A program made the position numbers and the translations under genes. The notes below the pieces were generated by a model that was not told the DNA's origin, ran no database searches, and saw nothing but the letters and a program-made list of their open reading frames with translations. This document shows positions 1-3,555 of a stretch of 3,555 bases of DNA, one piece after another; within the stretch, counting starts at the first letter, position 1, and every line of letters starts with the position of its first letter. The stretch is from a virus. Taxonomy: Duplodnaviria > Heunggongvirae > Uroviricota > Caudoviricetes. The DNA lies in the IMG/VR virus record IMGVR_UViG_2529292921_000021. One strand, 5' to 3'.

Positions 1-276
1 ATGGCGGGTTATTTGTCCGGGTTATTCCCCCGTTGTAAAATCTCTCCTAAACTTAACGGTACGGCACCACACTTCGGGGATGAAATGTTCGCGCTGGTAC
101 TTTTTGTTTGCTACCTGGATGGCGGTTGTGAAGATATTGTTGTGGATGTCTACAACACGGAACAGCAGTGTCTTTATTCTATGAGCGATCAACGGATCCG
201 CCATGGCGGTTGTTTTCCGATTGAGGATTTTATAGATGGTTTCTGGCGACCTGCACAGGAGTACGGTGATTTTTAA
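1..276 (+). CDS. yebW: YebW-like small protein of unknown function; ORF is open from the ATG at position 1 (91 codons), but the conserved part and a better ribosome-binding site suggest the real start may be the internal ATG at 85 (63 aa)
   Basis: Frame-1 ORF ending in TAA at 274..276. The C-terminal 63 aa (MFALVLFVCYLDGGCEDIVVDVYNTEQQCLYSMSDQRIRHGGCFPIEDF...) matches my recollection of E. coli YebW, which sits immediately upstream of pphA and is convergent with it. GGGGA lies 4-8 nt upstream of the ATG at 85. Nothing upstream of position 1 is visible, so the long form cannot be evaluated. Confidence 0.6.
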   Translation: MAGYLSGLFPRCKISPKLNGTAPHFGDEMFALVLFVCYLDGGCEDIVVDVYNTEQQCLYSMSDQRIRHGGCFPIEDFIDGFWRPAQEYGDF

Positions 277-933
277 TTATTGCAATTGCACAAGAGTCAG
301 TTCTCCCCCAAAGACAGCACCGGTATCAATATAATGCAGGTTGCCAATATCCACGCGATGGCGCAAAGGTGTATGACCAAACCAGAAATGATCAGCACCT
401 GCAATTCCCTGCCCTTTTTGGCGTTCACCTAATCGCGAGCGGCTCCACAAGACCTGATGCAAATCGACGTCCTTTTGCCATTCATAGACATCATCTGGAT
501 AATCGGCATGAGCAATAACATGTTTGCCGGTGCGACTGTGTAATTCAAGAATAAAGGGCAAATGCTGACATTTTTCCAGCGCCGTTTTCGCTTGTTTCTG
601 TTGATTATCTGCCAGCGCAATAAACCAGTCGCCGCCATTTATCAACCATAAAGACATCTGCCGGGATGCCAGCGCATCCATCGCCATCTGTTCATGATTG
701 CCTCTTACCGCACGAACCCAATGTTGTTCCAGTAACTGCAGGCAACGTAAACTTTGCGGCCCACGATCGATAACGTCTCCCACTGAGATAAGTAAATCTC
801 GCCACGGATCAAAACGACAATGCCATAATTTGCGGCGCAATTGCTCAAGACAACCGTGTATATCGCCTGAAAGCCAGATATGTCGCCATTGATGACCCGC
901 AATTCTCTGATAAATGGGCGCAGGCTGTTTCAT
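277..933 (-). CDS. pphA: Serine/threonine-protein phosphatase 1 (lambda-phosphatase-like metallophosphoesterase)
   Basis: The ORF track gives 277..936 because it accepts the TTG at 936; the only ATG is at 931..933, giving 218 aa starting MKQPAPIYQRIAGHQWRHIWLSGDIHGC... GGAGG sits 12 nt upstream of that ATG on the - strand. Metallophosphatase motifs are visible in the translation (GDIHG, GDVIDRG, GNHE, GHTP). Near-identical, from memory, to E. coli PphA/PrpA. Confidence 0.9.
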   Translation of the reverse strand: MKQPAPIYQRIAGHQWRHIWLSGDIHGCLEQLRRKLWHCRFDPWRDLLISVGDVIDRGPQSLRCLQLLEQHWVRAVRGNHEQMAMDALASRQMSLWLINGGDWFIALADNQQKQAKTALEKCQHLPFILELHSRTGKHVIAHADYPDDVYEWQKDVDLHQVLWSRSRLGERQKGQGIAGADHFWFGHTPLRHRVDIGNLHYIDTGAVFGGELTLVQLQ

Positions 934-1067
934 CAATATTTTCCTCCCGCGCTAAAGATCACATAATCTTAACAAGAATGTTAAAAAACGCTGGACTCAG
1001 ACAGTAGAGTGTGTGTTATGGTTGACTATAAAGTCAGCGAAGGGAATGCTTCTGGCTTTTAACAGAT

Positions 1068-1100
1068 AAAAAGAGACCGAACACGATTCCTGTTTTCGTC
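1068..1100 (-). ncRNA. sdsR: 3'-terminal remnant of the SdsR/RyeB small RNA (terminator hairpin plus U-tract); probable junction/att core of the inserted element
   Basis: The - strand of 1068..1100 reads GACGAAAACAGGAAUCGUGUUCGGUCUCUUUUU. This matches, with about 3 differences, the 3' end of SdsR as I remember it (GACCGAAUACAGGAAUCGUAUUCGGUCUCUUUUU). The position (about 130 bp beyond the pphA start, same strand as pphA) fits the known pphA-sdsR/ryeA-yebY arrangement. The sequence on the 5' side of the RNA (coordinates above 1100) does not resemble the SdsR body, so only a fragment is present. Identification is from memory. Confidence 0.35.
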
Positions 1101-1397
1101 AACAAACAATAAACCCTTTTTAAATTAATTTGTTAAGCAAAATTACGCTCATCTTTTAATCCCAAACACGTACCATTGCATATTAATGCATTCAATTAGT
1201 TACCATTTTTTTCGAGTTTTTTAGAGAAAATTTCGGGACTATTTCAGACCAATCCAGGCAGAAATAAGCAATCCCTATATTGAATGATTCCGCAACAATT
1301 ATGTAAAATCACCTCCGGCTGATTTTCATTCAAACTCGCGCTATCGAACGTCCATCAGCCAGCCGTGGCACGTTCTTGCATACGACGTGCTACGGTT

Positions 1398-1951
1398 TCA
1401 TTTATCTCCGACCGGAAACTTCTTATACAAAGTCGATACGCCAACATCATAAATGATCGCCACCTTCTGGCGAGGAACTCCTGATGCAATTAGTCGCCCG
1501 GCCTGCGCCCATTGTTCTGGTGAAAGTTTGGGACGGCGACCGCCAATTCGTCCCTGTGCGCGAGCAGCTTCCAGTCCAGCTTTTGTTCGTTCAACAATCA
1601 GTTCACGCTCCATTTCAGCCAGGGCCCCATCACATGAAAGAAAAAGCGCCCCATTGGGGTACTGGTATCAATTGAATCCGTCAGACTACGAAAGTTGATG
1701 CCTCGTTCGCGCAACTCCTCCACCAGCACGACAAGATGCCGCATACTGCGCCCCAGTCGGTCCAGTTTCCAGACCACCAGCGTATCACCTGCCGATAATG
1801 TCCTGAGCAGTTTTTTCAGTCCCGGCCTTTCGGACTTTGTACCGCTTATCTTGTCTTCAAAAATCAGCTCGCATCCTGCACAGTTCAGCGCATTACGTTG
1901 TAGATCTGTGTTCTGGTCATTTGTTGACACACGTACATAGCCAATAAGCAT
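1398..1951 (-). pseudogene. pin: Gin/Pin/Hin/Cin-family serine DNA invertase, disrupted by a 1-nt frameshift in a G/C homopolymer at about 1622..1628
   Basis: Two adjacent - strand ORFs (1598..1987 and 1398..1613) in different frames together give a full invertase. The N-terminal part is MLIGYVRVSTNDQ... (catalytic Ser in the YVRVS motif) ...MGRFFFHVMG, then frame is lost (PWLKWSVN*). The second frame continues (A)LAEMERELIVERT...GRIGGRRPKL...YDVGVSTLYKK, the helix-turn-helix C-terminus. From 1398 to 1951 is 554 nt, one short of 555 (184 aa plus stop). The true start is the ATG at 1949..1951, with GGGGGA 7 nt upstream; the extra 12 codons in the ORF track are an artefact of an upstream in-frame ATG. 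Confidence 0.8.
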
Positions 1952-1977: not shown

Positions 1978-2550
1978 ATGATGCCATTTGCTCGTTATTT
2001 CTGCATTTTCATAAACGTTGGTTTGGGAGAAGGTGCTCCAGCTATTGGCGTTCCGTTCTTCTGGCCGTCCGCCGCAATGCCAAATACTGTAATCGACAGT
2101 TGGTCCAGCATGGTGTTTTTGAAGTTCAACGGCGCGAAATTCTCTGCCACTGATTACCCTGTGCTGGCGAAAGTGTTTCCGGCGCTGGCATTACCTGACG
2201 CACGCGGTGATTTCATTCGTATCTGGGATGACGGACGCGGGATTGATGTCGGACGTACCCTACTTTCAGGGCAATCACACACAATTATGGATCATGCACA
2301 CAATATGGAATTGTGGACGGGGGACGGGCTTGTCGCAGGAAGTACACGGGAAGGAGTAAACCCAGGAATACTGGCTACATATGGTGACGGGGGAATAGTT
2401 AAAACGGACGAACCCGGTCTTAGGGTGCCTTCCTCACTACGAGCTATTAGCTCTCGTAGCGTTAAACGTTATGGTGAAATTAGTGGAAATGTAGGTACAG
2501 AAACCCGCCCACGAAATATTGCATTTAACTTTCTAGTGAGGGCTAAATAA
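1978..2550 (+). CDS. Tail-fibre C-terminal variable cassette (alternative receptor-binding end, Sv'-like); probably not an independent gene in this orientation
   Basis: 190-aa ORF; the frame is open from 1957, directly after a TAG. It contains a phage tail-collar-type motif (...FNGAKFSATDYPVLAKVFPALALPDARGDFIRIWDDGRG...; LPDARGDF at 2191..2214). There is no convincing ribosome-binding site at the correct spacing (AGGA is only 2 nt before the ATG). It begins at the candidate crossover site and is followed, with a TAATG overlap, by a tail-fibre assembly gene, as stfE/tfaE are in e14. Confidence 0.65.
   Translation: MMPFARYFCIFINVGLGEGAPAIGVPFFWPSAAMPNTVIDSWSSMVFLKFNGAKFSATDYPVLAKVFPALALPDARGDFIRIWDDGRGIDVGRTLLSGQSHTIMDHAHNMELWTGDGLVAGSTREGVNPGILATYGDGGIVKTDEPGLRVPSSLRAISSRSVKRYGEISGNVGTETRPRNIAFNFLVRAK
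2006..2031. other. Candidate invertase crossover site (gix/hix/cix-like 26-bp imperfect palindrome) marking the proximal boundary of the invertible segment
   Basis: TTTTCATAAACGTTGGTTTGGGAGAA agrees with the Mu gixL site as I recall it (TTCCTGTAAACCGAGGTTTTGGATAA) at 18 of 26 positions, including the AAAC / GGTTT arms around a central dinucleotide. It lies 55-80 bp from the invertase start and inside the first codons of the tail-fibre cassette, where such sites sit in Mu, P1 and e14. The match is to remembered consensus sequences only. Confidence 0.4.
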
Positions 2551-3143
2551 TGAAACCTGTTTTTGATGAAAATGGGCTGGCTACAGTACCGGGTAATATG
2601 CGTTGTTTTTATTATGAGGCAGTTACGTATGAATATACTGGCTGGTCTGATGAATATATTAATACTGGCGTAAGTATGCCCGCTTGTTCCACTGGTATTG
2701 ACCCGGGCGAATACATTCCGGGAAGAGTGGCAGTATTTACGGGTAAGGGATGGAGCCATGAAGAAGACCACCGCAATGAGACTGTTTACTCAATCGAAAA
2801 TGGCGCAGCTGTTACAGTGGATTATATCGGTGCCATCAAAGACGGTTATGTCACGCTTTCACCGTTAACGCCATACGATAAATGGGATGGTGAGAAATGG
2901 GTGACGGATACCGAGGCACAGCATAGCGCCGCAGTAGAAGCGGCAGAAGCACAGCGCCAGTCGCTGATTGATGCTGCAATGGCTTCCATCAGTCTGATTC
3001 AAATGAAATTACAGGCTGGGCGGAAGCTGACGCAGCCAGAAAACACCCGACTTAACGCTGTGCTGGATTACATTGACGCGGTGACGGCAACAGATACCAG
3101 CACAGCGCCGGACGTCATCTGGCCTGAACTGCCGGAGGCGTAG
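2550..3143 (+). CDS. Tail-fibre assembly protein (Tfa / Mu U / P2 G family)
   Basis: 197-aa ORF whose start overlaps the stop of the upstream cassette by 1 nt (TAATG), with GAGGG 9-13 nt upstream. The C-terminus (...LDYIDAVTATDTSTAPDVIWPELPEA) carries the conserved Tfa C-terminal motif (DTSxAPDxxWPxxP) remembered from TfaE/TfaR, Mu U and P2 G. Confidence 0.85.
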   Translation: MKPVFDENGLATVPGNMRCFYYEAVTYEYTGWSDEYINTGVSMPACSTGIDPGEYIPGRVAVFTGKGWSHEEDHRNETVYSIENGAAVTVDYIGAIKDGYVTLSPLTPYDKWDGEKWVTDTEAQHSAAVEAAEAQRQSLIDAAMASISLIQMKLQAGRKLTQPENTRLNAVLDYIDAVTATDTSTAPDVIWPELPEA

Positions 3144-3555
3144 GCCATTCAATATCTGGCGCACCGGAAGTATCGACCAGTTCCAGTGCGTCCAGATAAT
3201 CCAGCCACAAATTATATTGCGCCAGTTCCTCACCTTTCAGCCGGCCAATAGCCGCTTTACCAGGCCATTGTTTACTGTTCATATAATCGTTGGCCTGATT
3301 AATCAGTTGCTGCTTTTCCAGTTCGGCTGCAGCAATCTGTTCCTCATGTGTTGGTGGTGGAATTTCAGACCATGCAGGAAAACCATTTTCTCCAGCGATA
3401 CGGATTTTTCCTTTCGGCGGTAATCCGGAAAACTCAATATACACTTGCTCATCAACTTCAACAGCATCATCTGGCCATGAGTCAGCTTGAGTGTAATCCT
3501 CTTTCATCTCCAGCGGATAGAAAGAGTTTGTAGTCGCGGAATATATGTAATTCAT
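3115..3555 (-). CDS. Tail-fibre assembly protein (Tfa family), second copy, convergent with the first
   Basis: 146-aa - strand ORF starting at the ATG at 3553..3555 (the last three bases of the window) and ending at 3115. The C-terminus (...LDYLDALELVDTSGAPDIEWPTPPAVQAR) has the same Tfa motif. It overlaps the 3' end of the + strand tfa by 29 bp. Its ribosome-binding site and the expected upstream tail-fibre gene lie outside the window. Confidence 0.85.
   Translation of the reverse strand: MNYIYSATTNSFYPLEMKEDYTQADSWPDDAVEVDEQVYIEFSGLPPKGKIRIAGENGFPAWSEIPPPTHEEQIAAAELEKQQLINQANDYMNSKQWPGKAAIGRLKGEELAQYNLWLDYLDALELVDTSGAPDIEWPTPPAVQAR

Follow-up and report, generated by a model that had tools for sequence, protein, structure and literature searches.

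The 26-bp sequence at positions 2006-2031 of the DNA analysed here (the window, a stretch of 3,555 nucleotides) is very probably the invertase-proximal crossover site of a Pin/Gin-type invertible tail-fibre segment in a prophage beside pphA, belonging to the same module as the P segment of e14. Judged by its sequence, it is an e14-type Pin crossover site that occurs unchanged in another prophage, and the element as such is already known; the finding leaves the current understanding of DNA invertases unaltered.

The window is E. coli chromosomal DNA with the end of a prophage beside yebW-pphA. It begins with yebW (1-276, plus strand) and pphA (277-936, minus strand), and a 460-nt intergenic stretch separates pphA from the prophage end. 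There the order is an invertase gene, a 54-bp spacer, the 26-mer, an open reading frame that reads through it, a tail-fibre assembly gene and a second assembly gene in convergent orientation. The source contig is AIEW01000031.1 (L003, assembly GCA_000249075.2), in which window position 1 corresponds to position 7452. The prophage, inserted beside pphA, carries baseplate J, DUF2612 and gp53-like tail genes, and the closest complete genome (L001) is 96% identical across the window. An Rfam scan of the entire window returned no RNA families.

Architecture and conservation of the 26-bp site

The 26-mer, TTTTCATAAACGTTGGTTTGGGAGAA, occurs once in the window. It is made up of an outer half-site TTTTCATAAACG (2006-2017), a 2-bp core TT (2018-2019) and an inner half-site GGTTTGGGAGAA (2020-2031), and the two arms form an imperfect dyad that matches at 8 of 12 positions. 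The sites of Fis/enhancer-dependent invertases are likewise 26 bp long, a 2-bp core being flanked by two 12-bp half-sites of imperfect symmetry (TTNTCNNAAACC-NN-GGTTTNNGANAA). Against the invertase-site consensus, TTNTCNNAAACCNNGGTTTNNGANAA, the 26-mer showed a single mismatch. The proposal of the earlier note, a two-arm site of the gix/hix type at this place, was therefore upheld, and its assignment to that family agrees with the 17-19 of 26 positions shared with Mu gix and P1 cix. The core is the predicted strand-exchange point, because the crossover of P1 is annotated between bases 13 and 14 of the 26-mer, and also on the grounds of the Mu G-segment boundary.

The consensus was tested on the annotated records of Mu and P1. 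In phage Mu only two matches were obtained, with their centres at the annotated boundaries of the G segment, and in phage P1 only the annotated cixL and cixR were matched, so that the pattern can be regarded as a specific detector. In dinucleotide-preserving shuffles of the window, the mean was 0.01 matches per window and any match at all appeared in one of 200 shuffles. A chance resemblance to the consensus, for which nothing but the shortness of the motif speaks, is refuted by this low expectation and by the facts that the sequence is that of the e14 site, that an invertase gene is adjacent and that a partner is present; its probability is practically nil.

A spacer of 54 bp (1952-2005) lies between the site and the start codon of the invertase. 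The same spacing was found in K-12 e14, where the site ends at position 4631 of the extracted locus (L009) and pinE starts at 4686, and in Mu, where the site ends at 4538 (L013) and gin starts at 4593. The earlier note had placed the site between the invertase start and the tail-fibre cassette, as in Mu, P1 and e14. This placement applies to the window, Mu and e14, but not to P1, in which cixL overlaps the 3' end of cin. By a simple scan, neither a promoter nor a terminator was found around the site, and the spacer contained no sigma-70 consensus promoter; an invertase promoter overlapping the site, also considered, was left unsupported by this empty scan.

The reverse complement of the 26-mer, TTCTCCCAAACCAACGTTTATGAAAA, was compared with the K-12 genome sequence, which established its identity at all 26 positions with the pinE-adjacent site of e14 in MG1655 (NC_000913.3, 1209605-1209630). 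A 16-nt stretch on the plus strand, TTGGTTTGGGAGAAGG (2018-2033), equals the inverted repeat found on either side of the 1797-bp e14 P segment, as reported in a 2025 study (PMC12529663). The e14 element itself lies at icd, next to mcrA, and has the stfP/stfE cassettes, whereas the window lies beside yebW-pphA. The window carries the site-plus-invertase module of e14 in another prophage, and not e14 itself.

Next to the invertase gene, the 26-mer showed no variation in 11 independent E. coli loci, wobble positions included. The prophages at E. coli loci with the 26-mer were of the e14 type, lambdoid (bio locus), ssrA-linked and pphA-linked. The exact 26-mer also occurred among the viral contigs of IMG/VR, in at least 119 stretches, and at least 12 distinct sequences followed it among other contigs. 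When the window was aligned with K-12 e14 and two further loci, the four sequences agreed completely from the invertase gene up to and including the site and diverged from its inner edge. In many phages of the phage collection, similarity to the invertase module stopped at query position 632-636, which corresponds to window positions ~2030-2033. The site thus marks the proximal end of the invertible segment, as had been proposed. The e14-type invertase and site form a portable unit, unchanged in many unrelated prophages, beyond which the cassettes are shuffled.

The conservation could alternatively reflect the encoded tail-fibre peptide (..GLGE..) and not a recombination site. In both cassettes, as in the expressed gene, the inner arm is indeed read in frame as GLGE, but the outer arm has no constant part attached and yet all 26 nucleotides are invariant in the 11 loci, including the wobble positions. 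Moreover, DNA similarity stops exactly at the site, the isomers of K-12 join exactly at the 26-mer, and the same pattern finds the authentic boundaries in Mu and P1. The peptide explanation is contradicted by these data and is very improbable.

Invertase gene and putative enhancer

The site is adjoined by a disrupted gene for a Pin-type serine DNA invertase (1398-1951, minus strand), which starts with the ATG at 1951. Its Pfam matches, Resolvase (E 6e-39) and HTH_7 (E 2e-15), are split over two open reading frames. Alignment to intact pinE genes revealed that one T is missing between 1625 and 1626, where the sequence reads ATGGG-GCC in the window and ATGGGTGCC in three other loci. As written, the gene encodes 108 correct residues followed by 8 out-of-frame residues, helix E being incomplete at its end and the HTH DNA-binding domain absent. 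With the missing base restored, 178 of 184 residues are identical to K-12 PinE, and the L001 orthologue, which is intact, shares 79% identity with Mu Gin. The 1-nt deletion is private to the window sequence; at this locus in CS6L, pinE is frameshifted in another way. The earlier note did not mention the frameshift of the neighbouring invertase.

The cis-encoded invertase is probably inactive owing to this frameshift, as judged from the predicted product. The frameshift may also be a draft-assembly error rather than real, since the end of the source contig clearly carries errors: its last ~135 nt contain 9 single-base insertions relative to near-identical cassettes. The frameshifts that these insertions cause in the expressed cassette were considered as gene decay and rejected; they are confined to the last ~135 nt, the rest being near-identical to other strains, which indicates low-quality sequence.

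With an intact site and a frameshifted invertase, flipping in the window strain would need a Pin paralogue from another prophage acting in trans; otherwise the segment would be locked. Such a supply is plausible because of published paralogue data, in which the e14 segment was inverted by each of PinE, PinQ and PinR and was locked in a double mutant of pinE and pinQ (PMC12529663), and because of the multiple modules per genome. A related but rather unlikely possibility is that the site is authentic and now a locked relic, with a dead cis invertase, no invertase acting in trans and inversion ceased. The 1-nt deletion is in line with it, as is independent damage elsewhere, namely the frameshifted pinE of CS6L and an IS3 between pinE and the site in another locus (L002), lesions that suggest frequent decay of the module in prophages. 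Against it, the site is intact and identical at 26 of 26 positions to the site active in K-12, Pin paralogues encoded by other prophages act in trans to invert the segment of e14 (PMC12529663), several such modules are common per E. coli genome (up to 11 matching places), and the frameshift may stem from the draft assembly.

The 5' end of the invertase gene contains a putative recombinational, Fis-binding enhancer (1862-1933). This region is homologous to nt 19-90 of P1 cin, annotated in the P1 record as the enhancer of Cin-mediated inversion. Two Fis-like 15-mers were located on the minus strand (1915-1929 and 1867-1881), with 48 bp between their centres and 96.5 bp from the proximal 15-mer to the centre of the site; the motif is permissive, as the degenerate Fis consensus GNNYRNNWNNYRNNC with one mismatch matches about every 20 nt. 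Because such a motif is no evidence by itself, the enhancer call is based on the homology with the annotated P1 stretch. In Mu gin and K-12 pinE, too, Fis-like motifs are present at these positions, and the geometry of those in the window matches the published hin geometry. The region also codes for the catalytic-serine region, and coding constraint could account for its conservation.

Tail-fibre cassettes, partner site and inversion

The sequence on the inner side of the site (2020-2550, plus strand) is a silent alternative C-terminal tail-fibre cassette of the Sv' and tail-collar type. It matched the C-terminal ends of the PHROG tail fibre and tail collar fibre profiles (E 9e-51 and 1e-49) and, weakly, Pfam Collar. 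The 26-mer falls within the mechanical open reading frame 1978-2550, at codons 10-18, read as ..FINVGLGE; the silent cassette continues in frame through the site (..FINV GLGE-GAPAIGVPFFWPS..), and no constant part is attached to it in the recorded orientation. As regards the tail fibre, the spacer ATG at 1978 is a fortuitous start codon, and the cassette proper begins at the site. In annotation, the reading frame 1978-2550 is accordingly not a free-standing gene but a start-less alternative C-terminus, and the tail-fibre gene of this prophage has two forms.

The silent cassette is followed by its own tail-fibre assembly (chaperone) gene of the U' type (2550-3143, plus strand; Pfam Caudo_TAP, E 5e-27; PHROG_105, E 2e-82). 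The assembly gene of the expressed cassette, of the U type, is encoded on the minus strand (3115-3555; Caudo_TAP, E 8e-38; PHROG_188, E 2e-66). The two genes are convergent and overlap by 29 nt at their 3' ends. The variable cassette that partners the latter gene and the second crossover site lie beyond the window, at window-equivalent positions ~3580-3950; the gp53-like cassette of the source contig is ~98% identical to one adjoining pinE in e14-type loci. The locus therefore combines in-frame sites, alternative C-termini, a chaperone for each and convergent sets, as in an invertible tail-fibre cassette.

The source contig extends 378 nt beyond the window and ends with ...AGCCGCTTCTCCCAA. This end consists of the extended repeat and, 370 nt past the window, the beginning of the partner site, of which 9 nt (window-equivalent 3925-3933) are present before the contig stops. 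The same stretch in L001 reads AGCCGC-TTCTCCCAAACCAAGGTTTTCGAGAG, the complete partner being TTCTCCCAAACCAAGGTTTTCGAGAG; in the source strain, a contig that continues from it into the constant part would be expected to begin with ..ACCAAGGTTTTCGAGAG. A search for an inverted copy downstream, suggested in the earlier note, led in this way to the first 9 nt of a partner in the source contig and to a complete one in L001. That note had also expected the partner beyond 3555 in the constant part of the tail-fibre gene. Its location beyond the window was borne out by the 9 nt at the contig end and by the full site in L001, but it lies at the junction of the constant and variable parts.

A distance of 1858 nt separates the two sites in L001, and their cores are TT and AA, so they are in inverted orientation; their inner arms and flanks form a 25-nt inverted repeat (88%). 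The partner in L001 lies within the gp53-like tail-fibre gene, where it encodes ..ALENLGLGE.., and its sequence is exactly that of the distal site of e14, in stfP/ycfK. The silent cassette and this expressed gene are read through the site in one and the same frame, and exchange at the core therefore yields an in-frame fusion. The constant part and the baseplate J and DUF2612 genes come next in L001 and in two further loci (L005 and L011). Full inverted partners at the constant/variable junction of the tail-fibre gene were also found in related loci, and each fetched E. coli locus with a complete module had exactly two sites, 1.8-2.4 kb apart. Among the exact occurrences of the 26-mer in viral or genome contigs with enough downstream DNA, a partner was present for 95 of 99, at a median distance of 1860 nt and with an AA core in 92 of the 95.

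For inversion at the site, evidence was obtained from K-12. A chimeric 611-mer, in which the K-12 e14 segment was joined in the inverted orientation exactly at the site, matched over its full length and with 100% identity in at least 40 genomes of K-12 laboratory strains, including MG1655 CP032667, DH1 NC_017625, DH5alpha and W3110-P. The reference e14 junction was present in at least 40 other K-12 genomes (e.g. MG1655, BW25113 and DH1 NC_017638), and the two DH1 assemblies, NC_017625 and NC_017638, have opposite e14 orientations. The occurrence of both junctions within the clonal K-12 lineage shows that both isomers exist and that they are joined at the 26-mer. This agrees with reports that both orientations of the P segment coexist in cultures of an MG1655 derivative (PMC4272514) and that the e14 P segment inverts at TTGGTTTGGGAGAAGG / CCTTCTCCCAAACCAA (PMC12529663), the former repeat being that of window positions 2018-2033.

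For the arrangement of the window itself, the order of invertase, site and collar-type cassette was contiguous in 216 complete genomes, and the predicted inverted order, with the gp53-like cassette following the site, in 136. At the pphA locus of CS6L the gp53-like cassette lies on the invertase side with a full tail module beyond. CS6L was considered as a clean inverted isomer, having both the junction and the full tail module, and was rejected on account of its different second cassette. Strain 300709 has the predicted junction, with the prophage deleted just past it, and FDAARGOS_1287 (L004) and strain H7 (L007) have rearranged or duplicated modules; these candidates were likewise set aside. 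A search for an isogenic genome pair with the exact prophage of the window in both orientations yielded none, and the isogenic proof of inversion comes from K-12 e14 only. Genome assemblies can be expected to break or to differ in orientation at the 26-bp site.

The inversions between genomes could also be ascribed to general RecA-dependent homologous recombination at short inverted repeats. An inverted repeat of 14-25 nt is present, and homologous recombination is able to invert DNA between repeats. The repeat is, however, very short for RecA, a dedicated serine invertase adjoins the site in every locus, and inversion of e14 is reportedly Pin-dependent, being locked in the pinE pinQ mutant (PMC12529663), all of which makes this origin highly unlikely.

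The site-specific inversion favoured here would follow the mechanism established for the serine-invertase family, which for Hin has been described with 26-bp sites, a Fis enhancer and subunit rotation (PMC3798978, PMC2724282). Applied to the locus of the window, a dimer of the invertase would bind each 26-bp site via the two 12-bp half-sites, and the inverted sites, ~1.9 kb apart, would join the Fis-bound enhancer in the 5' end of the invertase gene to form an invertasome. Cleavage of all four strands at the core (2018-2019, TT/AA), staggered by 2 bp, would be followed by a 180-degree rotation of one subunit pair, and religation of the ends would leave the segment inverted. As both sites are in frame at the ..GLGE codons, the inversion would exchange the C-terminal receptor-binding cassette and its chaperone on a constant N-terminal part. 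In the recorded orientation, the collar-type cassette (2020-2550) and its chaperone (2550-3143) are silent, and it is the gp53-like cassette beyond the window that is joined to the constant part.

StfE2 of e14 has recently been said to interfere with the adsorption of incoming phages. It is conceivable, if quite improbable, that the segment of the window is an orphan substrate, its own invertase dead, that is flipped in trans by Pin paralogues of other prophages, and that the reading frame 1978-2550, with its ATG in the spacer and reading through the site, is expressed as a free receptor-binding fragment that blocks adsorption of incoming phages. If this were true, the locus would be part of an inversion-controlled anti-phage system acting across prophages, beyond a tail-fibre switch.

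Comparison with known invertible segments

The closest known system is the e14 P segment (pinE, stfP/ycfK, tfaP, tfaE, stfE), credited to Plasterk & van de Putte 1985 as cited in PMC4272514 and PMC12529663. The proximal 26-mer is identical in both (26/26), the distal e14 site is that of the closest relative of the window, the 54-bp spacing is shared, the repaired invertase matches PinE at 178 of 184 positions, and two convergent pairs of cassette and chaperone are present. The differences concern the location, e14 lying at icd and the window prophage beside pphA, the silent cassette, which in the window is of the tail-collar type and departs from K-12 stfE immediately past the site, and the invertase, which is frameshifted in the window.

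The G segment of Mu (gin, gix, S/U, S'/U') has the 26-bp architecture and consensus in common with the window, together with a site 54 bp upstream of the invertase start, an invertase outside the segment and sites at the constant/variable junction of the tail-fibre gene; the 79% identity of the L001 invertase refers to Gin. However, the site is identical at only 17 of 26 positions, its core is GA/TC in Mu and TT/AA in the window, the segment is about 3 kb in Mu against about 1.9 kb in the window type, and the cassettes are unrelated at the DNA level. The C segment of P1 (cin, cixL/cixR) shares the site family (18-19/26) and the TT/AA core, and its enhancer, annotated within cin (nt 19-90), is homologous to window 1862-1933. 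In P1, by contrast, cin points toward the segment, its 3' end is overlapped by cixL, and the segment measures 4.2 kb. The Hin/hix flagellar phase-variation switch of Salmonella also has 26-bp sites and the subunit-rotation mechanism, and its Fis-dependent enhancer, ~100 bp away from one of the sites and within the 5' coding part of hin (PMC3798978, PMC2724282), is placed like the putative one of the window. It differs in that hin is itself part of the inverted segment, whose inversion moves a promoter, whereas the invertase of the window type lies outside and coding cassettes are exchanged in frame.

Chromosome/prophage junction and invertase gene

Similarity to the invertase modules of other prophages starts at window ~1293-1396, and on this basis the chromosome/prophage junction is placed just before that point. 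No Rfam match was found in the intergenic region between pphA and the invertase gene (window 937-1397). Two convergent tail-fibre assembly genes overlap at their 3' ends by 29 nt (window 3115-3143), an overlap annotated likewise in related loci.

The Pin-type invertase gene (window 1398-1951, minus strand) is split into two ORFs, 1598-1987 and 1398-1613, by a 1-base deletion at window 1625-1626. Sequence comparison gave ATGGG-GCC at this position versus ATGGGTGCC in the closest complete genome (L001), K-12 and CS6L, and the deletion is private to the window sequence. It could represent a real pseudogene or an error of the draft assembly. The annotation of CS6L, which carries the same pphA locus, also gives the invertase gene as frameshifted (L011 4299-4852). 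Since its frameshift lies at a different position from that of the window, the comparison suggests that decay of the invertase gene at this locus has been repeated and independent.

Contig ends at the crossover sites

The terminus of the source contig AIEW01000031.1 (L003 11250-11384) is situated 378 nt past the window end and falls 9 nt inside the partner site, the inverted crossover site at the constant/variable junction of the tail-fibre gene. The final ~135 nt of the contig carry ~9 single-base insertions versus near-identical cassettes of other strains. Judged from the sequence, this end looks like low-quality sequence, with an assembly break placed exactly at the inversion junction. Among the matches listed for IMG/VR contigs (L018-L136), the exact 26-mer of the invertase-proximal site was located within 100 nt of a locus end in 12 of 123 occurrences; in four of these, on the invertase side, the distance to the end is exactly 25 nt. 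These near-end copies hint that assemblers often break at the repeated invertase-site module.

Rearranged modules in other E. coli loci

At the pphA locus of E. coli Z1323CEC0004, an IS3-family insertion (L002 10026-11239) separates pinE from the crossover site, which is nevertheless still intact at 11320-11345. E. coli strain H7 carries a tandem duplication (L007 4698-10649) of a ~4.2-kb unit in which pinE and the site are accompanied by a gp53-like cassette and a pair of assembly genes, with the two 26-mer copies, at 5307 and 9535, in direct orientation. In E. coli FDAARGOS_1287, adjoining ssrA, a cassette segment without an attached constant tail-fibre part (L004 4698-7879) is flanked on either side by invertase genes, as well as by two sites of the invertase-proximal type (TTTTCATAAACG.. 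and ..CGTTTAAGAAAA); it looks like two fused modules. In E. coli CX15, one strain of a closely related series, the pinE-plus-tail-protein module is found on a separate 18,368-bp record (NZ_CP081745.1) and not on the chromosome. Either an assembly artefact or an excised element may explain the separate record.

Putative enhancer within the invertase gene

Window 1862-1933 shows homology to the enhancer annotated in P1 cin. It contains two Fis-like 15-mers (window 1915-1929 and 1867-1881) whose centres are separated by 48 bp; the distance from the proximal 15-mer to the centre of the crossover site (window 2006-2031) is 96.5 bp. Mu gin and K-12 pinE have these motifs at conserved positions.
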